From positions 5,700,001 through 5,732,000 of the forward strand of contig NC_009925.1 in assembly GCF_000018105.1 (NCBI RefSeq): 32,000 nucleotides of DNA. Reading direction: 5' to 3'. Origin of the DNA: Acaryochloris marina MBIC11017. GTDB lineage: Bacteria > Cyanobacteriota > Cyanobacteriia > Thermosynechococcales > Thermosynechococcaceae. This document shows positions 1 to 20,350 of the stretch, one piece after another. How positions within the stretch are numbered: the stretch's first letter is position 1; each line of letters starts with the position of its first letter. The position numbers were made by a program, and so were the translations under genes. The notes under the pieces were generated by a model. That model searched no databases, was not told the DNA's origin, and saw only the letters and a list, made by a program, of their open reading frames with translations.

Positions 1-807
1 GCCTGATAGTAATTTATGAAATGAGACAGTCTCAAATGCTTTGGGATGGTTGCGAAAATTGAGCAGCATTTGGACATCTGCATTCCCAGTATTGGTGCGA
101 ATATAGCCCCCAAAATTAGGTCGAATTCGAGGAATCTCCGCAGACTTAAATCTCATGGCTACGGGATCATTGATGCCATTATCTAGATGGATATTTTGGG
201 CAATTAGAAATTTCTCGGCTAGGAGTAATGCTAGGGAGTATCGGAAGACTTGTTTTTTCGTTTGAGTTCCCAGCATGACCCGACGTTGGCTACCGTCCAG
301 ATCGACAGGGGCATCAGCAAATCCAACTCGGTCTAGGGGTAAGCCGGGGGGAGGATTCACTCGTTCCGATTGGTTCTCATCCAGTTCTTTCTTATTCTCA
401 TCCAGAATTTTATCGATACCAAATAGATTTTCCATCTCCTGAAAGGCGGTGGCCAAGTCTGCTGAACCCGGTTCTACGGGGATATCTCGGAATAAATCCA
501 GACCAATTGCTCTAGGCTCATGCTCTTGAAGAATGTTGAGCGACTGGGCGAGGTATTGATCGGGAATGGGATAGCGGCCAATCGAGCGAATACTATCCTC
601 ATCAATCGTGACCAACAGAATGCGTTTGTCTTGGGTTTCTGTCGGTTGATATTTCAGAAAGAGATCTAAGACTTGCAATTCCCAGGATTGGAAGGTTCCT
701 GCCCATCGTCCACCGAGGATTAGGCCCAGTATAAGTAAGCTGGGGAGCGCCACAAGCTTCAGTGGGGCTAATGGTTGACGAAGTTTATGCCAAATCTCAG
801 ACTTCAA
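1..807 (-). CDS. CHASE2-domain sensor protein, N-terminal part (gene continues beyond the left edge)
   Basis: This ORF is absent from the ORF track because it has no stop in the window. I translated the minus strand from TTG 807..805, which has AAGGGGA 6 nt upstream and an in-frame TAA two codons upstream. The product is MKSEIWHKLRQPLAPLKLVALPSLLILGLILGGRWAGTFQSWELQVLDLFLKYQPTETQDKRILLVTIDEDSIRSIGRYPIPDQYLAQSLNILQEHEPRAIGLDLFRDIP... and stays open to base 1. It shows one N-terminal TM helix followed by the pattern I recognise from CHASE2 extracytoplasmic sensor modules. The output domain is off-window. Confidence 0.75.
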   Translation of the reverse strand, partial: MKSEIWHKLRQPLAPLKLVALPSLLILGLILGGRWAGTFQSWELQVLDLFLKYQPTETQDKRILLVTIDEDSIRSIGRYPIPDQYLAQSLNILQEHEPRAIGLDLFRDIPVEPGSADLATAFQEMENLFGIDKILDENKKELDENQSERVNPPPGLPLDRVGFADAPVDLDGSQRRVMLGTQTKKQVFRYSLALLLAEKFLIAQNIHLDNGINDPVAMRFKSAEIPRIRPNFGGYIRTNTGNADVQMLLNFRNHPKAFETVSFHKLLSG

Positions 808-895
808 TCCTTATCCCCTTAATTCGTGATATGTGATATGAACCCATTCCCCCTGCAATCCTCGAATTCTGGTCTAGATTTCGTTTTGAAGATCA

Positions 896-964
896 ACCTG
901 AACGCTCTGATTATCAATACCTGAACTTTGGCTGAAGTTTCCTGATGATAACGGGATTTTTTCT
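896..964 (+). promoter_or_regulatory. Copy A of the phased CTGAA / CGGGATTTTTTCT cis-module, upstream of the small-ORF/DUF928/CHAT operon
   Basis: The sequence is ACCTGAA(896) ..ACCTGAA(919) ..CTGAA(932) ..CTGAT(942) ..CGGGATTTTTTCT(952-964). The last three elements are spaced exactly 10 nt apart. The CGGGATTTTTTCT 13-mer is identical to the one at 11513-11525. The module lies 55 nt upstream of ATG 1019. Confidence 0.6.
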
Positions 965-1018
965 GCCAACAAGCTCAATTAAGGTAATTTCAATAACCGA
1001 ATTACGGGGAGATCTGAT

Positions 1019-1201
1019 ATGCCTTCTGACTTTAGGTATGGAGAACCGATACACATTACACTGCCATCATTGTCATCAATGATGGCAGTGATAAAGGAGC
1101 AATTTCAGGAATGGGTCCGTCGAGAAATTATTGATTTTGACCCCTATGACGACGAAGGGGGATTAAGCAATTTTCCAGAAGAATTGAGAATAGATAAATA
1201 A
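1019..1201 (+). CDS. Small hypothetical protein (60 aa), first gene of the CHAT operon
   Basis: This is an ORF-track ORF. GGGGAG (1006-1011) lies 7 nt before the ATG. The gene sits just downstream of cis-module copy A and 13 nt upstream of the next ORF. I recognise no family. Confidence 0.5.
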   Translation: MPSDFRYGEPIHITLPSLSSMMAVIKEQFQEWVRREIIDFDPYDDEGGLSNFPEELRIDK

Positions 1202-1214
1202 AGGAGGTATTACT

Positions 1215-1409
1215 ATGTTTTTAGAGAAAACCCGCCACTACTTCCGTTCCGCTACCCAACGATTACGAGTGTCATTAGAACCTTGGCAGGAGGCCGCTTT
1301 GGGATGGATCGATCAGAACTTACAGATCATTGCTGATCGAGATGATTGTTCTACTCAGGGGCAAACAGAACAGATTGCGATCGCATTTTGTACCGTCAGT
1401 GCTAAGTGA
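1215..1409 (+). CDS. Small hypothetical protein (64 aa)
   Basis: This is an ORF-track ORF. A strong AAGGAGG (1201-1207) lies 7 nt before the ATG. The stop overlaps the GTG 1406 of the next ORF (GTGA), which suggests translational coupling. I recognise no family. Confidence 0.55.
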   Translation: MFLEKTRHYFRSATQRLRVSLEPWQEAALGWIDQNLQIIADRDDCSTQGQTEQIAIAFCTVSAK

Positions 1410-2326
1410 GGTATGCACCTATGGTTATGGCTCATCTCAATCCAATTCATCTGCTGAAAAGGCGCCGGGGAGAAAGACAGAACGGCTTCAGCTATCGTTT
1501 CGGGCTAGGTCTATTGCTCGTGTCCCTGTCGATATTGCCTTCCCCCGCTTGGGCAAGACGATATCAGCCGCCCAAGGGTGATCCGCCGAAAGGTAAGTTT
1601 GGGTCCAATGGTTCTCGGGGTTGTAGTTCTGCCCCATCCAAGTCATCGGCTTTGAGTCGTCCAACGGTGCCAGAGCAAAATCATGCCCAGACGGCAGCGG
1701 CTCAGCCCAGCAGCATTCCCGTTACCCTGTTAGCTCCCAGTACTCATGTGGGGAGAACCAGTGTGGTGGCACCTACGCTGGCTTGGTTTGTAACGGCAAC
1801 GGATCCCTATCGCGTCAGAATTTCTCTATTTATTCTGGATGCGGATCAAAGTTCTGAACTGATCCATGAGTTGGAATATATCGAAACGTCTTCTGGACTG
1901 GTTCAATACACTGTGCCAGCGGACCAGACCACCCTTGAGGATGGCCAACGGTTTTTTGTGGAGTTGAGTATTGCCTGTAAACCGGATGACGATCGATTTA
2001 GTCCCCCCTTTGTGGCTGAAGTAGATGTTGATTTGCCGGATACTGCTTTAAAAAAGGCATTATCGAAAGCTGAGACGCCTAGTCAGAAAGCAGCGTTGTT
2101 TGCAAAAGCCGGTTATTGGTTTGATGCGGTTAGAGAGCTGTTATTGGAAGCCAATGAGTCCCAGTCATACCAAAAACTTCGGACCTTTCTGAAGGAACAA
2201 GCTCAGGCTGGTGAAGGGGAAAAGCATAGCCAGACATTGGTTAATATTGCTGATCAGCTAGAGGATACAAATCTAAAGTCTGTTGTGCGGCCTTTGGATA
2301 TGAACCCATCCCCCGCTACCCCTTGA
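1406..2326 (+). CDS. Secreted DUF928-like protein (family call tentative)
   Basis: This is an ORF-track ORF. The more likely start is ATG 1421, with GTGAGG 9 nt upstream. That start gives MVMAHLNPIHLLKRRRGERQNGFSYRFGLGLLLVSLSILPSPAWA, which looks like a signal peptide. It is followed by YQPPKGDPPKGKFGSNGSRG, which resembles the PP..G.P....GGGSRG N-terminal signature I associate with DUF928. The gene context (CHASE2 plus CHAT) matches the usual cyanobacterial DUF928 neighbourhood. Confidence 0.7.
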   Translation: MRYAPMVMAHLNPIHLLKRRRGERQNGFSYRFGLGLLLVSLSILPSPAWARRYQPPKGDPPKGKFGSNGSRGCSSAPSKSSALSRPTVPEQNHAQTAAAQPSSIPVTLLAPSTHVGRTSVVAPTLAWFVTATDPYRVRISLFILDADQSSELIHELEYIETSSGLVQYTVPADQTTLEDGQRFFVELSIACKPDDDRFSPPFVAEVDVDLPDTALKKALSKAETPSQKAALFAKAGYWFDAVRELLLEANESQSYQKLRTFLKEQAQAGEGEKHSQTLVNIADQLEDTNLKSVVRPLDMNPSPATP

Positions 2327-2378
2327 ATTGAAAGTTGTGTGTTCCCGTCTTTAGTACACTTTCATTAGCCATAAGATT

Positions 2379-5300
2379 ATGAAAAGGATTGGGTGCGATC
2401 GCATCCTGATACAACATTGGGTAAGGCCAGCCATTGCTCCCCTGATGGGAGTGATTTTGAGTCCACTGATGTTCTCGAAAATGGTGTTGGCTCAACTAAT
2501 TGTCCCCGACAATACCTTGGGACCAGAACAGTCTGTTGTTGCCCCGGGCGCGACGGCTGACGAATTTTTTATCGATGGTGGGGCTCAGCGAAATACTGCC
2601 CTGTTCCATAGCTTTGAACGCTTTGGCATCAATCCCAATCAAACTGTTTTTTTCAGTAACCCGGCTATTGTCGAAAATATCTTTACCCGGGTGACCGGGG
2701 GGACGGCTTCCAACATTAATGGGTTGCTGGGTGTGGACGGTCCAGCTAATCTGTTTTTCGTCAATCCCAGTGGGATTTTGTTTGGCCCCAATGCTCAGTT
2801 GGATGTGGCAGGTGCATTTGTAGCCACTACGGCGGATCGATTTTTGCTGCCCAATGGTAATTCCTTTAATGCGGTGAATCCAAATGCGCCCCCGCTGCTG
2901 ACGGTTTCGGTACCCTTGGGGGTGCAGTTTGGCGCTACTCCTCAACCTATCTCAGTCAATGGTTCCACTCTAGAAACGGCCGTAGGAGAACCCTTCGCCT
3001 TGTTGGGGGGGCAGGTCAATCTCAATGGAGCTGAAATTTTGGCACCTGGAGGCCGGGTGGGTCTCAGTGGCCTGTCCCAACCTGACACTCTCCTTTTTGA
3101 TTTAGAAGCAGCAACACCTGATACTTTTCTGACTGTTCCGGTGGGGGGACGGTCTAATCTGACCCTCACTAATTCAACCATCGATACGGTAGAAGAGGGT
3201 GGGGGAGATATTGTCTTTGAGGCTGGGAATACCTCTCTCAATCAAACGAATCTATTCGTGGGGCTGAATGCGGATGTTGCTGATGTTAATGCCCAAGGTG
3301 GATCCGTTCTTCTGAATGGAACTGGGGATATTCAACTCATTGACAGTACTGTTCGAAGCTTGGTAGAAGATCTGGGGCAAGGTGAAACCGTCAGGATTAG
3401 CGGCCAGAATCTGACTCTGCAGGACAATTCTCAGATTTTGACGAGTACGTTAGGAGATAGCTCTAGTGGCGATATCCGCATTGATCTAACCAACCGTCTT
3501 CGCCTAGAGAGAGGGTCAGAAATTGTAAGCCAATCCTCAGCGGATGGGTTTATGAGTGATGCAGGATCTATCTTAATCAACGCACCTGATATTCGTCTTA
3601 GTTTCAGCTCTGGCATTAGCTCTGAGAGTGCTGGATCGGGAGGAGATATTCGTATTACGACGAATTCTCTTTGGGTTCGAGAGGAAAGTGGTATTAGCAC
3701 GAGAAAACTGGGACCGAATACCTCGGAGGGAGATATTCGCATTCAGGCCAATAGTATTTTGGTGGATGATCGAGGCGGACCCACGCTAGATCGATCGCCG
3801 ATTGGGATTACAACTAGTGTGACCTTCTTCCCTGAAGATTTAGGACTACCCCCTGAAACCCTGGGTGGAACAGGAGGAAACATCGAGATAGATACCCAGA
3901 ATCTGACCCTAATTGGTGGACTGATTGCTCCCGTTGTCTTTGGGAATGCCCAAGGGGGAGATCTGACGATTCGAGCTGGAGATACAGTCCAGTTAATTGG
4001 GGATCCAGCCGCAGCTCGAACGGACTTTGCTGGGGTGGCCGAGTTGTCCACTGCCATTCGGGATTCGACAACGGAGGGGTTTAGTGGCGATATACGCATC
4101 AATGCTCGCCATTTAATTCTGAGAGATGGTTCCATTATTGATGCTGGGGCTGAAGGGTTAGGCAATAGCGGCGATATCTTTATCAACACAACAGAGTCCG
4201 TGACCCTGCAAGGCACCTTGAATGGACAGCCCAGCCGGATTCTGACCCAATTGCAAAACCCTGGTCTGTTTGAAGGCGGCAATATCGATCTGGTAACTGG
4301 ACGGCTAACCATACAAGATGGTGGACAGATTTCAACCTCAACTACGACTAACTCGATTGGGAATGGGGGAGATATCTCAGTCGTTGCCAATCAAAGTGTT
4401 CTAATCACTGGTTCATCGCCTCGGGTGACATTACCTGCTGCTGATGCAGATTCCCCTTTTGTTCTGGATTCAACGAATACCCTATTCCCGAGCGGGATCT
4501 TTGCTACTGCACCCGGTGATGGGAATGCCGGTGGGATAGAAGTTGTTTCTCCCAATATCACCTTGAGAAATGGTGCTCAATTGTCAGTGAGCAGTAGGAA
4601 TGATGGCTCGGCAGGAAATTTATTTGTGCGTTCCAACAGGTTTGTATTGGATGATGCAGCCCTGTTAGCTGAGGCTGTGGAAGGGAATCAGGCGGATATT
4701 GGGTTGATCGTCAGGGATTCCTTGCAAATCCTGAATGGGAGTCGAATCTCAACGCTGGCTGGAGGGAATGCTGATGGCGGCAATATTGAATTAACAACGG
4801 GGCAGCTGACGATACGAGATGGAGGGCAGATCACGGCATCGACCACTGCTGATTCCGTTGGGAATGGCGGGATTGTAAGGGTGAATGCCAATCAAGGTAT
4901 TTCCATCACTGGCTCTATGCCATCTCCCACTGGGATTTTTACCAGCTCTTTAGGGGAAGGGGATGCCGGTGATGTGGAGATTGTGACCCCCACTTTAATG
5001 GTCAGTAATGGTGCTCAAGTTTCCGTGAGTAGTTCGGCGGGTGCTGCGGGATTTTTATCCATTGACGCCAACAAGGTTACCTTGGATAATTCCGCACTTC
5101 TGGCTGAGGCGGCTGACGGAAACCTGGCTGATATACGGCTATCCATTCGTGACTCACTGCAACTGCTCAAGGGGAGTCGGATTTCGACGGTGGCTGGGGG
5201 GAATGCGGATGGCGGCAATATTGAATTAACGACTGGGCAGCTGACGTTACGAGATGGGAGCCAGATTTTGGCATCGACGACTGCTGATTCAGTGGGAAAT

Positions 5301-8300
5301 GGTGGCGTTGTTCAAGTTAATGCTAATCAAGGTATTTTGATTACTGGTTCATCGCCAGTTCCCAGTGGAATTTTTGCTAGCTCTCTGGGAGAGGGAGATG
5401 CCGGCGATGTGGAGATTGTTACCCCCGCTTTAATGGTCAGTAATGGTGCTCAAATTTCGGTGAGCAGTGCGATGGGGGCTGCGGGCCTTTTATTTATTGA
5501 TGCCAACACCGTTGTTTTGGATAATGCTGGACTCCTGGCTGAGGCAGTGGAAGGGAATCTTGCCAATATCGAGCTGTCGGTTCGAGATTCATTGCAGCTT
5601 CTGAACGGAAGTCGGATCTCAACCGTTGCTAGTGGTGATGCGGATGGAGGCAATATCTTTATTGGCGGGACTGATACACAGCTACTGCGATTTTTAACCC
5701 TCCAAGGCGGTTCAATTATTTCTGCAGAAAATTCTGGTGGATTTGGTGATGGCGGAAGTATTGATATTAGTGCTCAGTTTATTATTGCTTTTCCCAGTGA
5801 ACTGAATCGCATTATTGCCAATGCCTTTGAGGGGGACGGAGGCGATATTGATATTTTTACGAATGCAATTTTTGGCCCACAGTTTCTCAACATCTCTGCA
5901 TCGTCGCAGTTAGGGTTGAATGGCGAGATTAATATTGAGACCATTGCTACGGATCCGGCGAGTGCCCTCAGTCAACTCCCCGAAAATGTGTTGGATTCAA
6001 GTACGCGAATTGCAGATGCTTGCGCTGTTCCGCGTACGGGGCAATCGCAATTTGTGGTGACGGGCCGAGGTGGGTTACCTCTGATGCCCTCCAGCCGACC
6101 CGCCGGGAGTTATCTGTTAGTGGATTTAGGTACTCAAGCACTTCCGGAGGTTACACCTGCTTTGCAAGAAGCGAAGCAGCTAGTGGTTACAGCCAGGGGA
6201 GACTATTACCTGCAGGGAGAATCGTCTCGTACCCTCCCCAAGCTGCTAGAAGAGGGTCGTCAAGCCTATCAACAGGCTAACTATGCCGATGCAGTTGTCC
6301 ACTGGACGCAAGCTGCAACTCAATTATCCAAACACCCTGATGCATATGCTTCAGTTCAGAGTCATTTAGCTTTGGCCTACCATTATCTAGGAGATTGGGA
6401 GCAGGCGAGAAGCGCGATAGAGTCTAGCCAAAGGGCATTGACCCCTGACCTCATAGCTGAGCAACCTGCTCTTCAGGCTCAGGTGCTAAGTGCAAGGGCG
6501 AGTTTATTCCTTGCTCGGGGTGATACTCGTAGCGCTCTGGAGGATTGGCAAGCGGCGGCGAATGCCTATCAACGGGCGGGGGATGATTCGGGTAACCTGC
6601 AGGTACAGTTGAATCAGATTCAGGTTCTCCAAGATCTGGGCTATTTGCGCCAAGCTCAACAGCAGCTCGTGCAACTGATGCAGATTCTAGAGCAACAGCC
6701 GCCGTCACCCGTAAAGGCGATGACTCAGTTGAATCTGGGGAAAGTGTCGCGGGCTGAAGGGAACATGTTGCGATCGCAACGCCAAATCGAAGCTGCTCTA
6801 AATACCGCTCAATCCCTCAACCAGCCAGCCCTAACCAGTACTATCCTTCTGAATTTAGGCCATACTTTTCGGGGACAGGGAAATACCCAGAAGGCTTTGG
6901 ATTACTATCAACAGGCCCTTGGAATTGCACCGACCCCTCTGATTCAATTTCAGGTGCAAGTGAGTCGGTTTGATCTGTTAGTTGCTCAAAAAAATCCTGC
7001 AACATCAGAGCTTTTGCAAGAGCTACAGGAGCAAACAGGATCGCTTCCCAGCAGTAGAGAGGGGATTTATGCACAACTCCACTTGATCGAAACGGTTCTG
7101 ACTGCGGCAAAGAAGGATGAGTCCTCGACTCTATTGGACTTACTGAACCGAGCACAAAGTCAAGCCCAAGGGTTAGATGATCCCAATGCTCAGTCTTACA
7201 TTCTGGGGTATCAGGGACGGATTTATGGTGAGGCTCAACAATGGTCCCAGGCGGTGTCTTTGACGGAGCAAGCCTTACAACATGTCCATCGGCAGCAATC
7301 TCCAGAAGTGCTGTATCAACTGGCTTGGCAATTGGGCCGCTATCGTCGCCAACTCGGCAATCGCCAAGGGGCAATTTCGGCCTATCTCGATGCTGTGGCA
7401 GCCCTGGACTCTTTACGAGGAGATCTCAAAACAGCGAGTGATGATGTTCGCTTTACCTTCAGAGATGGAGTAGAACCCGTCTATCGAGAGTTGGTGGGGC
7501 TGCTGCTAGAGGGGGATATGACCCAGGCAGATTCTTCGAGTAATCTAAGGCGTGCCCGCAAGCTCATCGAAAATTTGCAGCTCAATGAAATTCGAGACTA
7601 CTTTCAGGATGCTTGTGTGCAAGCCGAACCGCGAGAAGTGGATCAAGTGGATCCAAACGCAGCGGTCATTTATCCCATTGTTTTAGAGGATCGAGTCGAT
7701 GTAATTATCAGTATCGGTGATCAACCCCTGCGCCACTACAGTACGCCGATTGAGCCTGGACAAGTGGATGATACGGTGAAACAACTGTTGCGATCCCTAA
7801 CCACGCCCTTGGGGTCCGTTCAGAAGAAAAACCTCACTAAACTTAAGCAAATTTACGACTGGGTGGTAGAGCCAGCAGCTGCAGATCTAGCCCAACAGGA
7901 TGTGGAAACGTTGGTGTTTGTCGCCGATGGAGCCTTGCGCACCTTACCCTTGACCATGCTCTACGATGGCGAGCAATATTTGATTGAACAATATAATGTG
8001 GCGCTCTCCCCCGGTTTAGATCTATTAGCGCCTCGTCCCCAGGCGAGAGAAAAGGTAAAGCTGCTTGTGGGAGGCGTAAGTGAGGCTCGGTCTGGTTTCC
8101 CGGCTTTGCCCTATGTAGCCAAAGAAGTAGAGCAGATTACGTCACAGATTCAAGAACATGCTGTTCTGTTTAACCAAGATTTGACCCAACAGAATTTGAA
8201 GGATTACCTGACAGAAGTATCTTCTGAAGTGGTGCATTTGGCGACCCATGCTGAGTTTGGTGCTAGCCCTGAAGATACGTTTATTCTCACTTGGGAAGGG

Positions 8301-8657
8301 AGACTCTCGATTCAGGCGATGGCCTCTTTACTCCGAACTCGTATTCGCACGTCTGAGGTTCCCATTGATTTGCTCGTCTTGAGTGCTTGTGAAACGGCTA
8401 CGGGAAATAGTCGGGCGGTGCTTGGTATTGCCGGGATGGCGATTCGATCCGGCGTTCGTAGTACTTTGGCTGGCTTATGGGCGTTGGATGATCAGGCGGC
8501 TGCGGCGTTTATGGGGCATTTTTATAAAGCGTTGGCTCAACCCCATACCACGAAGGCCGCAGCGTTTCGTCAGGCCCAGTTGGCTTTGATGAAGGACCCA
8601 CAATTTAAAGCCCCCTATTTTTGGAGTCCATTTGTGCTGGTAGGTAACTGGCTGTGA
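2379..8657 (+). CDS. Giant two-partner-secretion-type exoprotein: TPS (haemagglutination activity) domain, beta-helical repeats, TPR repeats and C-terminal CHAT protease domain (2092 aa)
   Basis: The N-terminus has a signal-like segment followed by a TPS-domain signature: IDGGAQRNTALFHSFERFGINPNQTVFFSNPAIVENIFTRVTGGTASNINGLLGVDGPANLFFVNPSGILFGPNAQLDVAGAFVATTA. About 1100 aa of G/S/N/D-rich beta-helix-type repeats follow. The FVVTGRGGLPLMPS motif lies at about 6050-6090. TPR-like helical repeats span about 6250-7400. The C-terminal CHAT domain carries the caspase-like dyad His in VVHLATHAEF (codon 8247-8249) and Cys in LLVLSACETA (codon 8388-8390). Confidence 0.9.
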   Translation: MKRIGCDRILIQHWVRPAIAPLMGVILSPLMFSKMVLAQLIVPDNTLGPEQSVVAPGATADEFFIDGGAQRNTALFHSFERFGINPNQTVFFSNPAIVENIFTRVTGGTASNINGLLGVDGPANLFFVNPSGILFGPNAQLDVAGAFVATTADRFLLPNGNSFNAVNPNAPPLLTVSVPLGVQFGATPQPISVNGSTLETAVGEPFALLGGQVNLNGAEILAPGGRVGLSGLSQPDTLLFDLEAATPDTFLTVPVGGRSNLTLTNSTIDTVEEGGGDIVFEAGNTSLNQTNLFVGLNADVADVNAQGGSVLLNGTGDIQLIDSTVRSLVEDLGQGETVRISGQNLTLQDNSQILTSTLGDSSSGDIRIDLTNRLRLERGSEIVSQSSADGFMSDAGSILINAPDIRLSFSSGISSESAGSGGDIRITTNSLWVREESGISTRKLGPNTSEGDIRIQANSILVDDRGGPTLDRSPIGITTSVTFFPEDLGLPPETLGGTGGNIEIDTQNLTLIGGLIAPVVFGNAQGGDLTIRAGDTVQLIGDPAAARTDFAGVAELSTAIRDSTTEGFSGDIRINARHLILRDGSIIDAGAEGLGNSGDIFINTTESVTLQGTLNGQPSRILTQLQNPGLFEGGNIDLVTGRLTIQDGGQISTSTTTNSIGNGGDISVVANQSVLITGSSPRVTLPAADADSPFVLDSTNTLFPSGIFATAPGDGNAGGIEVVSPNITLRNGAQLSVSSRNDGSAGNLFVRSNRFVLDDAALLAEAVEGNQADIGLIVRDSLQILNGSRISTLAGGNADGGNIELTTGQLTIRDGGQITASTTADSVGNGGIVRVNANQGISITGSMPSPTGIFTSSLGEGDAGDVEIVTPTLMVSNGAQVSVSSSAGAAGFLSIDANKVTLDNSALLAEAADGNLADIRLSIRDSLQLLKGSRISTVAGGNADGGNIELTTGQLTLRDGSQILASTTADSVGNGGVVQVNANQGILITGSSPVPSGIFASSLGEGDAGDVEIVTPALMVSNGAQISVSSAMGAAGLLFIDANTVVLDNAGLLAEAVEGNLANIELSVRDSLQLLNGSRISTVASGDADGGNIFIGGTDTQLLRFLTLQGGSIISAENSGGFGDGGSIDISAQFIIAFPSELNRIIANAFEGDGGDIDIFTNAIFGPQFLNISASSQLGLNGEINIETIATDPASALSQLPENVLDSSTRIADACAVPRTGQSQFVVTGRGGLPLMPSSRPAGSYLLVDLGTQALPEVTPALQEAKQLVVTARGDYYLQGESSRTLPKLLEEGRQAYQQANYADAVVHWTQAATQLSKHPDAYASVQSHLALAYHYLGDWEQARSAIESSQRALTPDLIAEQPALQAQVLSARASLFLARGDTRSALEDWQAAANAYQRAGDDSGNLQVQLNQIQVLQDLGYLRQAQQQLVQLMQILEQQPPSPVKAMTQLNLGKVSRAEGNMLRSQRQIEAALNTAQSLNQPALTSTILLNLGHTFRGQGNTQKALDYYQQALGIAPTPLIQFQVQVSRFDLLVAQKNPATSELLQELQEQTGSLPSSREGIYAQLHLIETVLTAAKKDESSTLLDLLNRAQSQAQGLDDPNAQSYILGYQGRIYGEAQQWSQAVSLTEQALQHVHRQQSPEVLYQLAWQLGRYRRQLGNRQGAISAYLDAVAALDSLRGDLKTASDDVRFTFRDGVEPVYRELVGLLLEGDMTQADSSSNLRRARKLIENLQLNEIRDYFQDACVQAEPREVDQVDPNAAVIYPIVLEDRVDVIISIGDQPLRHYSTPIEPGQVDDTVKQLLRSLTTPLGSVQKKNLTKLKQIYDWVVEPAAADLAQQDVETLVFVADGALRTLPLTMLYDGEQYLIEQYNVALSPGLDLLAPRPQAREKVKLLVGGVSEARSGFPALPYVAKEVEQITSQIQEHAVLFNQDLTQQNLKDYLTEVSSEVVHLATHAEFGASPEDTFILTWEGRLSIQAMASLLRTRIRTSEVPIDLLVLSACETATGNSRAVLGIAGMAIRSGVRSTLAGLWALDDQAAAAFMGHFYKALAQPHTTKAAAFRQAQLALMKDPQFKAPYFWSPFVLVGNWL
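4662..5660 (+). repeat. In-frame tandem repeat of 435 nt (145 aa) inside the TPS-CHAT gene, about 2.3 high-identity copies
   Basis: The LLAEA(V/A)(E/D)GN.A(D/N)I motif recurs at 4662, 5097 and 5532, a period of exactly 435 nt. Long stretches are near-identical, for example GGNADGGNIELTTGQLT(I/L)RDG and GEGDAGDVEIVTP(T/A)LMVSNGAQ(V/I)SVSS. A more diverged copy precedes these at about 4230-4660. Confidence 0.9.
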
Positions 8658-15850: not shown

Positions 15851-16781
15851 CTGCATGGAAGGGATGGATGCAGGTCGCTATCAATCCAGGGCGTTTCAGC
15901 AGGCTAATTCATGGCTGGCGAATTTTTTTCCACCGCTTTCGGTAAGTTGATCATCTCTAGGAGGGTTCAGCATTTCTACCTATCGGTAGAGGCGATTCTT
16001 ATCACTCTTTTGTTTAGGTGGATATAGATCAGCCCCATGATTGGGTGGAGAGTATGTATAGCGCGATGGAGGCTCCAAGTTCTTTGGGTGAGGACTTATC
16101 GATTATGGCCCAATCAACCTCCGAACTATCGATGCTCGGAGGTGGTGAAAAGAGTCTTTTCCTCCTCCCTGTAAGAGAGCCAAGGATTTTACCTTGCTGT
16201 ATTCAAACGTATTGAATGTGCCTGTATGAGTTATTTTCGAAACTTTAGACGATTTTTTCAGCCATTGAGTCATCTTTGGCGTTGGTTGGCTTTGGCCGTA
16301 GCTACCGCTATTCTTTGCAGTAATTTTGTCTGGATATCAGCGGCCATGGGTCAAATTCCTGGTAGCTTCCTGCCATCGATATCAGGCCAGGCGAATTCGT
16401 CCGCCAATCCAATTAAGGGACTGAAACAAAATTCCTCACTGAATGAGGATTTTGTGGTTAAGGGTATTTATTTAGATGGTCGGCGAATGGTTGATATTGC
16501 CGTTCCAGCTTCGAAAGTCCAAAATGACTCATCGGAGGAAACTGAAGAGTCTACGACGTCCGTGTCAATTTCTAACCGGGCCGAAGTGATTCAAGATCGG
16601 TTGCAAGACTTAGCGCAAGATAATCTCAATCGCAGCTCTCTGACCGTTGATTTTCAAATAGATCCTGAAAACCAGTTGCCTCGAATCATGGTCAATGGGA
16701 GCTATTTGATGACGGTGACGACCAGCGATGCAGAGGTTCAAGGGGACAATCTAGTGCAGAGATCTGTAAATAGTTCATCAG

Positions 16782-17477
16782 CTATAGTCGAGGTTGGAAT
16801 CCCTTAAATTGCCATTGGAAAGGTTTGGCCATCGTGTGATTGAAATACTCAATAAATTCGAGGATGCGCTGTTGCAAATCATCCTTGGAGGTGAAATTGC
16901 CTCGACGAATCAATCGACGCACCAAAATACTAAACCAGCATTCAATCTGATTGAGCCAGGAGGTATGTTTGGGGATATAAACAAATCGGATCCGATGGCT
17001 GGGGTCGCTCAAGAAAGCTGTGCGAGTCTCCATCGATTTGAGAATACCGGATTGACCTTTAACACCTAACTCTGAATCCATACCGCAACAAGCAGCAACC
17101 CATCGCACCAAGGAAGCAGAGCGATGGGTATTGAGTTGGTCGAGTAGAAAAATCCATCCATCGTCCGGTGCTGTTTCAACGGTATTGGCAATATGATTGG
17201 CAAAGTCAAACTCTTTTCGAGTGGGTCCGATAGAAGGCGCAATCACCTTTCCCAGAGCCACGTGCCAGTTGGCAATCAAACTGAGGGTACCGTGCCGTTT
17301 ATATTCAAATTCCAAGCGACGTGGTTGCCCTGGTTTCATGGCTTGGTCTAGGTATAGTCGTTCAAGCGCTTGAATGCCCGTCATTTCATCCGTACTGACA
17401 AGGTGAATCTGTTGAGCTGCCAATTCAGCTGCTGAGTCATACAGTTGACAAATCTGACGCACTTTCGCCTCGAACAC
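16782..17477 (-). CDS. IS630-family transposase, DDE catalytic part (orfB, +1 frame relative to orfA)
   Basis: This is an ORF-track ORF of 231 aa. It contains LVSTDEMTGIQALER, WIFLLDQLNTHRS and HTSWLNQIECWFS, which is a DDE/Tc1-mariner-like signature. The frame stays open upstream to the orfA overlap (GEAQLQPHRSRYWLNANPEDPEVFEAK). Confidence 0.8.
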   Translation of the reverse strand: MFEAKVRQICQLYDSAAELAAQQIHLVSTDEMTGIQALERLYLDQAMKPGQPRRLEFEYKRHGTLSLIANWHVALGKVIAPSIGPTRKEFDFANHIANTVETAPDDGWIFLLDQLNTHRSASLVRWVAACCGMDSELGVKGQSGILKSMETRTAFLSDPSHRIRFVYIPKHTSWLNQIECWFSILVRRLIRRGNFTSKDDLQQRILEFIEYFNHTMAKPFQWQFKGFQPRL

Positions 17478-17493
17478 CTCTGGGTCCTCAGGG

Positions 17494-18030
17494 TTAGCAT
17501 TGAGCCAATAGCGACTCCGATGGGGCTGCAGCTGAGCCTCTCCCCAAAAAACGTCTCACACTGCTGGCCGACAGGTGAGGGACGATGCCGCGTTTAATCG
17601 CTTCATCAGCAATCTCTTCAGGTGTCCATTGACTCACAGGTCGGGCTGAGTCCTGGGGAGATTCACAGGCAATAGCCACAATTTGGATCACCTGCTCTGG
17701 GGTAAAGGTGGGTGGGACACCTGGACGCGGGGCATCTGTTAAAGCCTCCAACACTTGCTGGTGCAATTCTGTTTCGCTGTCGTCTACCTGCTCACAAAGG
17801 GCAAGACGCTCTTGATTATCAAGCCAGCGCTGACGCCAATAGCGAACTTGGTTGCGGTCGAGTTGCCATTGACGGCTAATCTGGGTGTTACTTTCGCCTG
17901 AGGCGGCTGATAGGATGATGCTTGCTCGACGTACCAAGCGATAAGGATTGGTGGTTTGTCGCACGATTTGGGTCAAACAATGGTGTTGTTGCTGCGATAG
18001 TTCGATTGGAGAAGCTTTGGGAGTTGGCAT
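17494..18030 (-). CDS. IS630-family transposase, N-terminal HTH part (orfA)
   Basis: This is an ORF-track ORF of 178 aa with helix-turn-helix regions. The expected ..FLGRAQLQPHRSRYWLN.. continuation is in the +1 frame, after a T6G4 run (plus-strand 17542-17551). Confidence 0.8.
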   Translation of the reverse strand: MPTPKASPIELSQQQHHCLTQIVRQTTNPYRLVRRASIILSAASGESNTQISRQWQLDRNQVRYWRQRWLDNQERLALCEQVDDSETELHQQVLEALTDAPRPGVPPTFTPEQVIQIVAIACESPQDSARPVSQWTPEEIADEAIKRGIVPHLSASSVRRFLGRGSAAAPSESLLAQC

Positions 18031-19173
18031 TGGCAGAAATCATATCTTGTGAAGAGGGTTTCTCTGACACTATCCGATTGATGACCAATCTTGTATAACT
18101 GCCGGATTATCTTCAAAATCTAGGACTAGAAACAGCGACTCAGGGAATCATTCAATCCATTAAGGATGGGCTTCAAAACTATAAGCGGGAACGTCAACCC
18201 GATTACCTAAGACGGCAAGGGTTGATTGCAGGTGGGCTCACCGTCGGATTGCTGGTATTGACGATTGGCATTAAGTATCGACAGCGACAACTTAAAGCTC
18301 GATACAAACAGATTTTGGCTGAGATTGAGAAGGCTGAGTCATTCGTAATTTCTTCTTCTGAATCAGATACCAATTCTAAGGAAACGTTATCTGAGCAGAG
18401 CAACGGGGTGGCCCAAAAGCAGCTTGCCAAACACAAAAGATTGAAAGTATGGATGGAACTTCGACAAAGATTATTGACGATTGGTCTGATTGGAATTTGG
18501 GCCGGAGGAGTGGCGTTAGTCTTGCGCCTTTTCCCCCAAACCCGGTGGCTGCAGTCATTGGTGTTGTCTGGTTTAGGGCAGGTACTCCTAAAAATTATTG
18601 TCATCCTAGTGGCGACCTATTGGGCGGTTCGGATCAGTTTTGTGTTGATCGATGGGATCTTCACTTTCTTGGGTCGAAGTAGTCTCCTCTCTTCTCCAGC
18701 CTCAGTGCGAAAACAGCAGCGGCTGCAAACGGTCGCAGGCATTGCTAAAGGAATTGTCACCATTTTGATGGGAATTATTGGATTCCTGATTGCGCTATCA
18801 ACCCTGGGAGTCAATATTGGTCCTTTGCTAACAGGAGTAGGGATTATAGGTGTGGCGATATCCTTGGGTGCTCAGAATTTAGTGAAGGATATGATTAATG
18901 GATTTTTTATCCTGCTGGAAGATCAGTTTAGTGTGGGGGATGTGATTACCATCGGGGATGCGTCGGGATTTGTCGAAAAAATGAATTTGCGCATTACTCA
19001 ATTGCGCAGTATTGACGGTGAATTAATTACGGTTCCAAACAGCAGTATTTCAGAAGTCAGAAATCATACGAATAAATGGTCTCGGGCCAACTTAGCGATC
19101 GCAGTTGGGTATCACACTGATCTGGATCAGGCGATTTCGATTATTGATGATGTTGCTCAAGAGATGGGTAGTC

Positions 19174-19566
19174 CTAGTCCTGTAAGGATGCATTGTAGTG
19201 ATGGACAAACATCCAGATTGCTCCAATATGATTCTCTAGCTTTTTCGAAAACGACAGTGTCTTTCGAACTAACCGAGACACTCGCTGGCGCATGGTGCAA
19301 TTAAATCGTTCAATGTAGCAGGTTTGGCCTGTTTCCTTGCCCACAGCTTGATGTCGTTGTTTGGGGAAAACACAGCCGTAGGCATCCCAAAAATCCGTGT
19401 AGGCAACCGCACATTGACGATAGATTCCTGGCAAGGAATTCCATAGCTGACGAGCACCTTGCTTGGAGCGTGCCCCCACATAAACACCGACTATCTCACG
19501 CGTGATGACATCAAGAGCAAGCCATATCCACTGTTTATTGCTCTTATCGTTCACAAATGACCACAT
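19174..19566 (-). CDS. insB: IS1-family InsB (DDE part), in the +1 frame relative to insA
   Basis: The product begins MWSFVNDKSNKQWIWLALDVITREIVGVYVG...YTDFWDAYG...IERFNCTMRQRVSRLVRKTLSFSKK, which is IS1 InsB-like. The frame is open upstream through an A8 run (plus-strand T8 at 19594-19601), giving ..KKGRLTLQCDEMWSF. Confidence 0.85.
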   Translation of the reverse strand: MWSFVNDKSNKQWIWLALDVITREIVGVYVGARSKQGARQLWNSLPGIYRQCAVAYTDFWDAYGCVFPKQRHQAVGKETGQTCYIERFNCTMRQRVSRLVRKTLSFSKKLENHIGAIWMFVHHYNASLQD

Positions 19567-19570
19567 TTCA

Positions 19571-19888
19571 TCACATTGAAGAGTTAATCGGCCTTTTTTT
19601 TGATGATATGTTCACAGTACGAGGCACTGCTTCATACTTACAGTTCACGTACTCTTGTAACCAGCTTTCAGAAACATCACAGACCCTGGCAATACCTGCC
19701 AGAGGTATCTTTTCAAGCAATAGCTTATCGATCAGGCCTTTAGTGGATGAATCAATTCGCTTTTGCTGAGGAGCTTCCACAAACTGACGACCACAGGTTT
19801 TACATTTGTGGTTTTGCTTGCCATTATGGATTCGACCGTTTTTGACAACGTTTTGAGAACGACAGTTAGGGCAGGTCAATGTCGACAT
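19571..19888 (-). CDS. insA: IS1-family InsA (zinc-ribbon / HTH)
   Basis: The product begins MSTLTCPNCRSQNVVKNGRIHNGKQNHKCKTCGRQFVE..., an InsA-type CxxC...CxxC ribbon. I use ATG 19888 because the ORF-track start 19966 lies outside the IS in mscS flank DNA. Confidence 0.85.
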   Translation of the reverse strand: MSTLTCPNCRSQNVVKNGRIHNGKQNHKCKTCGRQFVEAPQQKRIDSSTKGLIDKLLLEKIPLAGIARVCDVSESWLQEYVNCKYEAVPRTVNISSKKRPINSSM

Positions 19889-20350
19889 TTGTGATGCTGG
19901 ATTTTGGATGTTGGATATATCTATCCTTACATCTGGCGGACTACCCAAGAGATGAATCGGGTGCAACCCTGGCAGGACCTTATCTTAGAGCCTCCTACAG
20001 TATTGGGGGTGGATGAATTCAATGAAAATCATCTGACGATTCGGTTGTGGATTAAGACTAAGCCGTTGAAGCAGTGGGATGTGGCTCGAGAGTATCGCCG
20101 TCGCCTTAAGAATGCCTTTGATCGAGAAGGCATTTCTAATCCTCTCCCCCACCGAACGATTCAGATTGAGAGTGCAAGTGAACTAAGCAATCTCAATGGT
20201 CGTAAATAGACCTCTGACATAAATTACAAAGGGCGGTATGTATCGTTCTAGCCGATTTTTTAATCGTCCTCAAACGTATACCCAGGTACAGCCAGATATG
20301 ACAGGATTTACGATAATAGAAACGATGAATAATACCCTTTACAAACTTCC

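Follow-up and report, generated by a model that had tools for sequence, protein, structure and literature searches.

A stretch of 32 000 nucleotides from Acaryochloris marina MBIC11017 (NC_009925.1, positions 5 700 001 to 5 732 000; hereafter the window, numbered from its first letter) begins with genes for a CHASE2 sensor histidine kinase, a secreted DUF928 protein and a giant protein of 2092 amino acids (aa), in which a two-partner secretion (TPS) domain and a long shaft are followed by a tetratricopeptide repeat (TPR) superhelix and a CHAT caspase-fold protease domain (Table 1). We propose that this region represents, in compact and fused form, a conserved cyanobacterial module for proteolytic signalling in the cell envelope, in which the signal would run from CHAT to DUF928 to the CHASE2 kinase. 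We regard this reading as evenly balanced between right and wrong. The cluster in its usual form consists of a CHASE2 kinase with a regulator, a secreted DUF928 protein, a TPR-CHAT protein of ~900 aa with a signal peptide, a TpsA protein and sometimes a TpsB transporter. All four proteins of the module expose their relevant domains outside the cytoplasm.

Co-occurrence of the module genes

An earlier note, made from the letters of the window and a list of its open reading frames (ORFs), had stated that CHASE2, DUF928 and CHAT genes recur together in cyanobacteria. To quantify the neighbourhood, we scanned one genome per species with a 13-sequence DUF928 alignment as the query. This gave 274 DUF928 relatives, the best 80 of which were taken with 10-kb flanks as the locus set; every named one is cyanobacterial, and several genomes give two loci. 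A CHASE2 gene was found within 10 kb of DUF928 in 59 of the 80 loci (74%), a TPR-CHAT gene without a TPS domain in 44 (55%), a TPS-only TpsA gene in 39 (49%), a REC-GerE regulator gene in 37 and a ShlB-type TpsB gene in seven. Among the 45 loci whose flanks reach 8 kb or more on each side, the values were 78, 60, 67, 58 and 13%, respectively. CHASE2, CHAT and TPS genes occurred jointly at 27 of the 80 loci (34%) and at 49% of those with full flanks. Among the direct neighbours of DUF928, 32 genes encoded CHASE2 and 32 encoded CHAT. Representatives of each neighbour class were confirmed with Pfam. The association holds and is strong, the cluster extends beyond what the earlier note had named, and in these 80 DUF928-selected loci its genes are co-encoded far beyond chance.

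The usual gene order is a small membrane protein, a REC-GerE regulator, CHASE2 and DUF928, with TPR-CHAT on the opposite strand, followed by TpsA and sometimes TpsB. The CHASE2 protein of this arrangement has ~630 aa and a weak, sub-threshold HATPase_c match. The association reaches several cyanobacterial orders, with gene order and orientation rearranged.

At 20 of the 80 loci the first gene of the usual cluster encodes a protein of ~240 aa with one N-terminal transmembrane helix and no Pfam match (e.g. L059 3825-4559 and L062 10290-11012, with 18 further loci). An H-box-like IHND motif, picked out by eye, suggests a stripped-down histidine-kinase-like protein.

The giant protein

The earlier note had read the 2092-aa protein as a TPS domain joined to TPR repeats and a CHAT domain with an intact His and Cys, and the profile matches bear this out, with E-values well outside what chance would give. 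A predicted Sec signal peptide precedes a TPS domain that carries both signature motifs, INPNQ (NPNL-like) and VNPSGI (NPNGI-like), as is characteristic of TpsA proteins. The TPS domain is also matched by the filamentous-hemagglutinin N-terminal model TIGR01901 of NCBIfam (adhes_NPXG, E 2e-25) and by HxuA (4i84), and an AQ-x-VPD-x-TLG N-terminus is kept across the aligned homologs. The shaft that follows is presumed from its Gly-rich repeats to be a right-handed beta-helix. It holds a 435-nt tandem duplication (4723-5656; 2.1 copies, 79% match by Tandem Repeats Finder). Shaft length differs between strains, the homologs having 1756-2092 aa.

The putative catalytic dyad, His1957 (CAT at 8247-8249) and Cys2004 (TGT at 8388-8390), falls on the positions given in the earlier note and is invariant in an alignment of 25 homologs. 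An AlphaFold2 (AF2) model of the TPR-CHAT part (pLDDT 87.4, pTM 0.84) has the TPR-CHAT fold of the separase and craspase type; its best Foldseek matches in the PDB were Csx29 (8eex_B, 1e-15), DdvA (6e-13) and human separase (7nj1, 6e-12). By sequence and model, this is a CHAT protease domain with an intact dyad in a signalling-type TPR-CHAT fold, and it is predicted to be proteolytically active.

Residues 1296-2092 align from end to end with the standalone TPR-CHAT partners of DUF928 (862-961 aa) at 28-40% identity, the best matches being those at L064 and L084 (40%). The giant protein is therefore a fusion of the TpsA and TPR-CHAT members of the cluster, and its CHAT half is, by this alignment, the ortholog of the normally periplasmic partner. 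All 37 standalone proteins examined open with basic residues and then a hydrophobic signal sequence; with a signal peptide and no TPS domain, these partners are extracytoplasmic and yet not TPS substrates. This bears on the view of the earlier note that the protein is built for export to the cell surface. The TPS domain and signal peptide agree with that view, whereas the orthology of the CHAT half makes surface export only one of two possible topologies. The fused CHAT domain could stay in the periplasm on the tether of a surface-exposed shaft, or could be fully exported.

The joint between the two parts is itself conserved. A motif of the form C-x(5-16)-F-x-V-T-G-R-G-G-L-P-x-x-P, here CAVPRTGQSQFVVTGRGGLPLMP, ends the shaft in 51 of 120 TPS homologs. 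From this motif to the C-terminus there are 70-118 aa in most TpsA proteins that lack CHAT and 720-880 aa in those that bear it. What follows the motif may be a tail of ~100 aa, a TPR-CHAT domain or, in P0055 and P0105, a POTRA domain with a ShlB barrel; the last two look like single-chain TpsA-TpsB proteins.

The fused TPS-TPR-CHAT architecture recurs in cyanobacteria, Myxococcota, Desulfococcaceae and others, and a TpsB gene adjoins the fused gene at three of the four non-cyanobacterial loci examined (L004, L087 and L090). At 17 DUF928 loci, TPS and CHAT are encoded by separate, neighbouring genes. TpsA, TpsB and CHAT also form an operon on plasmids of Nostoc punctiforme PCC 73102, a laboratory model (pNPUN02, NPUN_RS36135-36145), and of A. 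marina S15. The CHAT proteins of these operons show homology across both TPR and CHAT; the one from A. marina S15 has an N-terminal signal peptide, and the N. punctiforme protein as annotated has no N-terminal hydrophobic segment. These independent events of fusion and adjacency argue that TpsA and the TPR-CHAT protease work together.

The plasmid operon represents a second type of CHAT-TPS cluster, without DUF928 or CHASE2. It continues with genes for a hypothetical protein, a Ser/Thr kinase and an NB-ARC protein, an order conserved between the two distant cyanobacteria (L139 9289-20754, that is pNPUN02, NPUN_RS36135-36160; L086 12248-26324, the A. marina S15 plasmid).

The DUF928 protein and its invariant arginine

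Between the kinase gene and the giant gene, and co-oriented with the latter, lies the signal-peptide protein that the earlier note had called DUF928-like. It belongs to DUF928 by its profile match (Table 1), its Sec-type signal peptide (residues 1-45, ending AWA/RR) and its modelled fold. In the AF2 model (pLDDT 72.5) a disordered stretch (46-96) precedes a beta-sandwich (101-203) and a five-helix bundle (208-279). A search of the PDB returned only generic immunoglobulin-like beta-sandwich matches with TM-scores of at most 0.34, and therefore no function can be transferred from the fold.

The disordered stretch holds some of the best-conserved residues of the family, among them the N-terminal motif RRYQPPKGDPPKGKFGSNGSR at residues 46-66. 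Arg66 is present in 83 of 83 DUF928 sequences, occupies one of only three fully invariant columns and lies inside the low-confidence, disordered part of the model; we treat it as the candidate P1 residue for cleavage by CHAT. Cys68 and Cys186, each almost invariant, are likely to be joined by a disulfide.

A profile search put the family at 1192 clusters at 50% identity. One subfamily of 269-284 aa, from Floridaenema, a Phormidium strain and a cyanobacterial metagenome-assembled genome (L029, L031, L035, L038, L047 and L079, at position ~10001 of each), stands in another conserved neighbourhood, where CHASE2, CHAT and TPS genes are all absent within 10 kb.

DUF928 on anti-sigma factors outside cyanobacteria

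At two loci outside cyanobacteria, DUF928 forms the periplasmic domain of zf-HC2 anti-sigma factors. In a Myxococcota locus (L087), the gene for a sigma factor of the extracytoplasmic function (ECF) type and that for a 510-aa protein, composed of zf-HC2, a transmembrane segment, a Pro-rich linker and DUF928, adjoin a TpsB gene and a TPS-TPR-CHAT gene. On L091, a marine scaffold, the ECF sigma gene comes first and zf-HC2::DUF928 second, and the TPR-CHAT gene after them overlaps the preceding gene at its start. In a gapped alignment both fusions have an Arg aligned with Arg66, between the membrane linker and the beta-sandwich. These loci show that DUF928 can serve an anti-sigma factor as its sensory domain. 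Together with the precedent of DdvA (see below), the placing of such fusions beside TPR-CHAT genes means that transmembrane signalling fits the data better than the roles in surface-protein processing or programmed cell death that the earlier note had entertained.

The CHASE2 kinase and its regulator

The divergent gene at the left edge does encode a CHASE2 protein, as the earlier note had it, and the output domain that was to be sought beyond the edge proved to be that of a histidine kinase. In a near-identical A. marina record (L001, AP026075.1) the full protein has 805 aa, with an N-terminal transmembrane helix, a periplasmic CHASE2 domain, HisKA and HATPase_c, the last two being read from the L001 gene. 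Its operon partner, just left of the window (L001 4723-6000, minus strand), is a 425-aa REC-GGDEF response regulator. The GGDEF motif is degenerate (RYGTFTFA here; RYGT-x-(T/V)-FA in the closest orthologs) and so the regulator is probably not a diguanylate cyclase.

The 13 DUF928 loci closest to that of the window (L006-L017 and L023) all have a CHASE2 gene, and wherever Pfam was run its product is a CHASE2-HisKA-HATPase_c kinase. Orthologs of the regulator occur at nine of these 13 loci, with the degenerate motif in four.

Neighbouring proteins of ~1090-1215 aa have the N-terminal ~100 aa of the regulator (PF26355, HTH_VMAP-M9) in common with it. Places noted for the regulator and this family are L005 2428-6075, L007 17105-20377 and L013 13025-16285, and the protein in L005 bears WD40-type repeats.

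A proposed mechanism and the evidence against it

In the mechanism that we propose, TPR-CHAT would act in the periplasm or on the inward side of the outer membrane, perhaps tethered to a surface-exposed TpsA shaft, and would be activated by an envelope or surface cue. It would then bind and cleave DUF928, most likely after Arg66 in the disordered N-terminal segment. Cleavage may alter what the neighbouring histidine kinase senses with its periplasmic CHASE2 domain, and the kinase would signal through the REC regulator with the degenerate GGDEF domain. Where DUF928 is fused to an anti-sigma factor, cleavage would instead permit release of the sigma factor. We infer that the proteins interact physically, that DUF928 is cleaved and where, the place at which CHAT ends up and the direction of information flow. 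If CHAT is retained in the periplasm, TpsA would be an outside-facing antenna.

A bolder version would make TpsA/TpsB, TPR-CHAT, DUF928 and the CHASE2 kinase (or an anti-sigma::DUF928 protein) an undescribed trans-envelope pathway for cell-surface signalling, in which a surface beta-helix filament gates a periplasmic caspase-like protease. Cleavage of free-standing DUF928 after the invariant Arg would release the conserved 21-residue N-terminal peptide, that of the fused form would detach the DUF928 domain from the anti-sigma stub, and either event would switch a transmembrane transducer. We offer this version tentatively and think it unlikely to be correct in full.

Several observations weigh against the proposed signalling module. 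A TPS domain normally implies export to the surface by TpsB, and full secretion would part CHAT from DUF928 and CHASE2. The earlier note had placed the cognate TpsB outside the window; we likewise found no POTRA/ShlB gene in the window or within the 10 kb upstream of it (ShlB genes are present on six plasmids of other Acaryochloris strains in PLSDB). When six TPS-TPR-CHAT loci were fetched without reference to DUF928 (L002, L003, L004, L087, L088 and L090), only L087 had DUF928 within 10 kb, and DUF928 is therefore not an obligate partner of TPS-TPR-CHAT. The paralogous block on a plasmid (AP026078.1) of the same A. marina genome as chromosome AP026075.1 keeps DUF928 and TPS-CHAT and has no CHASE2 gene nearby. 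We found no more than two anti-sigma::DUF928 loci; a metagenome scan with patterns drawn from the zinc-finger part gave 47 anti-sigma relatives, with DUF928 or CHAT in none. The 80 loci were chosen by DUF928 similarity, include many related Nostocales and are not phylogenetically independent. Their ORFs were called heuristically, clustered without prior labels and classed by home-made hidden Markov models, of which the one for CHAT was corrected. Finally, every function proposed here is deduced from sequence, models and gene context.

The individual domains and the fused architecture are already annotated in public databases, and the proteins themselves are not new. In the literature searched there was no experimental work on the system, in agreement with the earlier note, and no description of the cluster as a system, of the relationship behind the TpsA::TPR-CHAT fusion, or of DUF928 as the common periplasmic component that connects CHAT proteases with CHASE2 kinases or anti-sigma factors; DUF928 was mentioned once, in passing. 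We know of no reported ligand or partner for the extracytoplasmic CHASE2 sensor domain. If the bolder version is right, it would supply the first such ligand or partner, and a function for a family of ~1200 clusters at 50% identity that sits in a recurrent cyanobacterial cluster with caspase-like proteases. The TpsA::TPR-CHAT and anti-sigma::DUF928 fusions turn a vague gene association into a specific claim, namely that a periplasmic CHAT protease would act on DUF928 at one invariant Arg and so control a CHASE2 kinase or an ECF sigma factor.

Alternative explanations

The TPR-CHAT part could instead be the cargo of a polymorphic TpsA exoprotein that leaves the cell entirely and acts outside it, on surface proteins of the producer itself, on matrix or on competitors. 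DUF928 would then be a securin-like pseudosubstrate inhibitor or a chaperone in transit, and the CHASE2 system would only regulate expression. The TPS domain and signal peptide are genuine, TpsB adjoins the homologs in other phyla, and a conserved junction motif stands before a variable C-terminal cargo as in polymorphic toxins, although there is no VENN-type pretoxin motif. The conserved disordered segment of DUF928 could fill the active site as securin does in separase, a pair that is among the fold matches, but fusions of DUF928 to anti-sigma factors are hard to explain by a mere inhibitor. At most DUF928 loci, moreover, the CHAT partner has a signal peptide without TPS and is periplasmic, and the most frequent neighbour of DUF928 is CHASE2, above CHAT. 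This is the main rival explanation, though we consider it unlikely.

The shaft might also deliver TPR-CHAT into the periplasm of a sibling cell, where cleavage of the sibling's DUF928 would switch its CHASE2 kinase and provide a signalling channel in aggregates or filaments. Contact-dependent signalling of this kind is reportedly carried out by BcpA of Burkholderia. The order of TPS domain, shaft, junction motif and cargo is CdiA-like, the periplasmic receiver components are encoded alongside, and the cluster is enriched in filamentous and aggregate-forming cyanobacteria. The standalone periplasmic TPR-CHAT of the usual cluster, however, needs no delivery, and neither receptor-binding nor translocation domains were identified. 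CdiA toxin domains are typically far smaller than the folded TPR-CHAT part of 800 aa. Taken together, this leaves kin signalling improbable.

A third explanation is that the genes have no functional link and stand together only because they descend from one syntenic block. Related Nostocales supply many of the 80 loci, so that synteny could be inherited, and sampling from the CHAT side gives a weak association. Inheritance of a block does not account readily for an association that spans several orders with its genes rearranged, nor for the independent TPS-CHAT and DUF928-anti-sigma fusions in other phyla, and we think this explanation very improbable.

Least credible of all is that CHAT matures the neighbouring HlyC-acylated RTX protein, which the earlier note had named as a possible substrate: the order DUF928, TPS-CHAT, HlyC, HlyC, RTX does occur in two diverged A. 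marina blocks, on chromosome and plasmid, but a single segmental duplication can explain it, outside A. marina RTX and HlyC genes are found at none of the 80 DUF928 loci, not even at L016, which has the other complete fused TPS-TPR-CHAT protein that turned up through DUF928, and in the window an opposite-strand amidohydrolase gene parts them from the CHAT gene. With no conservation beyond A. marina, we rejected the RTX protein as substrate for the main reading.

Other features of the window

Coordinates are collected in Table 1. The two small ORFs between the CHASE2 and DUF928 genes gave no Pfam, NCBIfam or PADLOC match. Downstream of the giant gene, the amidohydrolase gene is absent from the plasmid paralog and is thus probably a later insertion that does not belong to the module. 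The HlyC-HlyC-RTX genes have a counterpart on plasmid AP026078.1 (L005 16651-20906, with an RTX protein of ~1400 aa), again after a TPS-CHAT gene; between the chromosomal and plasmid blocks the DUF928 proteins are ~52% identical and the CHAT proteins ~68%. It is doubtful that these genes belong to the module, because they are linked to it only within A. marina. Two HlyC paralogs beside one RTX protein seem to us unusual, though this is no more than an impression. Membership of the region in a defence system was considered and rejected, PADLOC having given only a weak TPR match.

The giant protein is encoded identically on the 6.4-Mb A. marina chromosome AP026075.1. The window is 100% identical to this chromosome over 1-8641 and ~95-96% identical thereafter; the drop at 8641 points to a different strain, or to recombination with a boundary close to the 3' end of the CHAT gene. 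Compared with AP026075.1, the window also has a 1.37-kb IS630-like insertion (16755-18125), which splits a mechanosensitive-channel gene, and a 0.78-kb insertion (19167-19945).

Table 1. Features of the window, with positions counted from its first nucleotide
Feature	Position	Strand	Basis
CHASE2 sensor histidine kinase, first 269 codons; gene runs off left edge	1-807	-	Pfam CHASE2, E 1.9e-37
Small ORF, 60 aa, no hydrophobic segment	1019-1201	+	63% aa identity, same position in another Acaryochloris genome (L006)
Small ORF, 64 aa, no hydrophobic segment	1215-1409	+	70% aa identity, same position in L006
DUF928 protein, 301 aa (306 aa from start at 1406)	1421-2326 (or 1406-2326)	+	Pfam PF06051, E 2.5e-23
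Arg66 codon of DUF928, candidate P1 residue for CHAT cleavage	1616-1618	+	Conservation, disorder, analogy with HetF
TpsA::TPR-CHAT fusion protein, 2092 aa	2379-8657	+	ORF map and Pfam
Predicted Sec signal peptide, residues 1-38, ending ...KMVLA/QLIVPD	2379-2492	+	Read from sequence
TPS domain, residues 41-245	2499-3113	+	Pfam PF05860, E 7e-49
Gly-rich repeat shaft, presumed beta-helix	3114-6020	+	Gly-rich repeats, homology to cyanobacterial TpsA shafts
Junction motif, residues 1215-1237, end of TpsA part	6021-6089	+	Motif common to TPS homologs
TPR superhelix, ~22 helices	6282-7604	+	AF2 model; Pfam TPR families at residues ~1341-1634
CHAT caspase-fold protease domain, residues 1822-2090	7842-8648	+	Pfam PF12770, E 3e-58
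Amidohydrolase, between CHAT and HlyC genes	8680-9717	-	Pfam
HlyC-type acyltransferase 1	9926-10564	+	Pfam HlyC
HlyC-type acyltransferase 2	10846-11379	+	Pfam HlyC
RTX repeat protein, 1419 aa	11536-15795	+	Pfam HemolysinCabind

Comparison with known systems

With FhaB, HxuA and CdiA the giant protein shares a signal peptide, a TPS domain with NPNL- and NPNGI-like motifs, a long shaft, a conserved junction and a variable C-terminal cargo. Unlike them it has no adjacent TpsB gene, its cargo is an 800-aa TPR-CHAT part, and no immunity-like gene lies downstream, where the next gene is the opposite-strand amidohydrolase. The junction motif is C...F-x-V-T-G-R-G-G-L-P, and none of the CdiA-type motifs VENN, VDNN or ELYN is present. 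In FecA-FecR-FecI, DegS-RseA and CpxP-DegP-CpxA, an envelope cue acts through periplasmic proteolysis of an accessory protein or domain to change a transmembrane anti-sigma factor or a kinase. The likeness of the proposed module to these systems is in logic only; the protein families are unrelated.

The only characterised cyanobacterial CHAT protease is HetF of Anabaena PCC 7120, whose sole substrate, PatU3, is cut strictly after Arg (PMC9457339). A cyanobacterial CHAT protease with a single specific substrate and Arg at P1 resembles what we propose, and supports reading the invariant Arg66 of DUF928 as a P1 residue. HetF differs in its architecture and in its role in cell division and heterocyst differentiation, and the likeness to the giant protein that we draw on is that of the CHAT domain.

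Csx29 (Craspase) and separase are TPR-CHAT proteases that are allosterically gated and have one dedicated substrate, Csx30 in the one case and cohesin, with securin as the inhibitor, in the other; separase also cuts after Arg (PMC11506125). They share the TPR superhelix and the CHAT caspase fold with the giant protein at only 10-13% sequence identity. Their setting is the cytoplasm or the nucleus and their trigger RNA or the cell cycle, whereas the giant protein has a signal peptide and a TPS domain. The type III-E Craspase genes, gRAMP/Cas7-11 and Csx30/31, and CRISPR genes in general were absent within 10 kb.

The nearest precedent appears to be DdvA, by analogy with which the module would be a case of protease-gated transmembrane signalling. 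DdvA is a transmembrane anti-sigma factor of Myxococcus whose periplasmic domain is a TPR-CHAT (PMC11506125). Its authors propose a 'site-1' cleavage by CHAT, in response to a trigger as yet unknown, that precedes intramembrane cleavage by RseP and releases an ECF sigma factor (PMC11506125). Like the giant protein, DdvA has an extracytoplasmic TPR-CHAT with a His-Cys dyad in a transmembrane signalling setting, and its site-1 logic parallels the loci of ECF sigma factor, anti-sigma::DUF928 and TPR-CHAT (L087 and L091). DdvA lacks a DUF928, TPS or CHASE2 component; in it CHAT and the anti-sigma factor are one protein, with a CHAT active site that is without three helices of other CHAT domains. 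The locus in the window, for its part, has neither zf-HC2 nor a sigma gene: the giant protein starts with a signal peptide and TPS domain, so that the protease is separate from the transducer and fused to TpsA, a CHASE2 histidine kinase serves as the transmembrane partner, and DUF928 stands between the two. If the proposed module is right, it would extend the theme set by Craspase and DdvA, in which TPR-CHAT proteases serve as dedicated signalling switches and not as bulk degraders.

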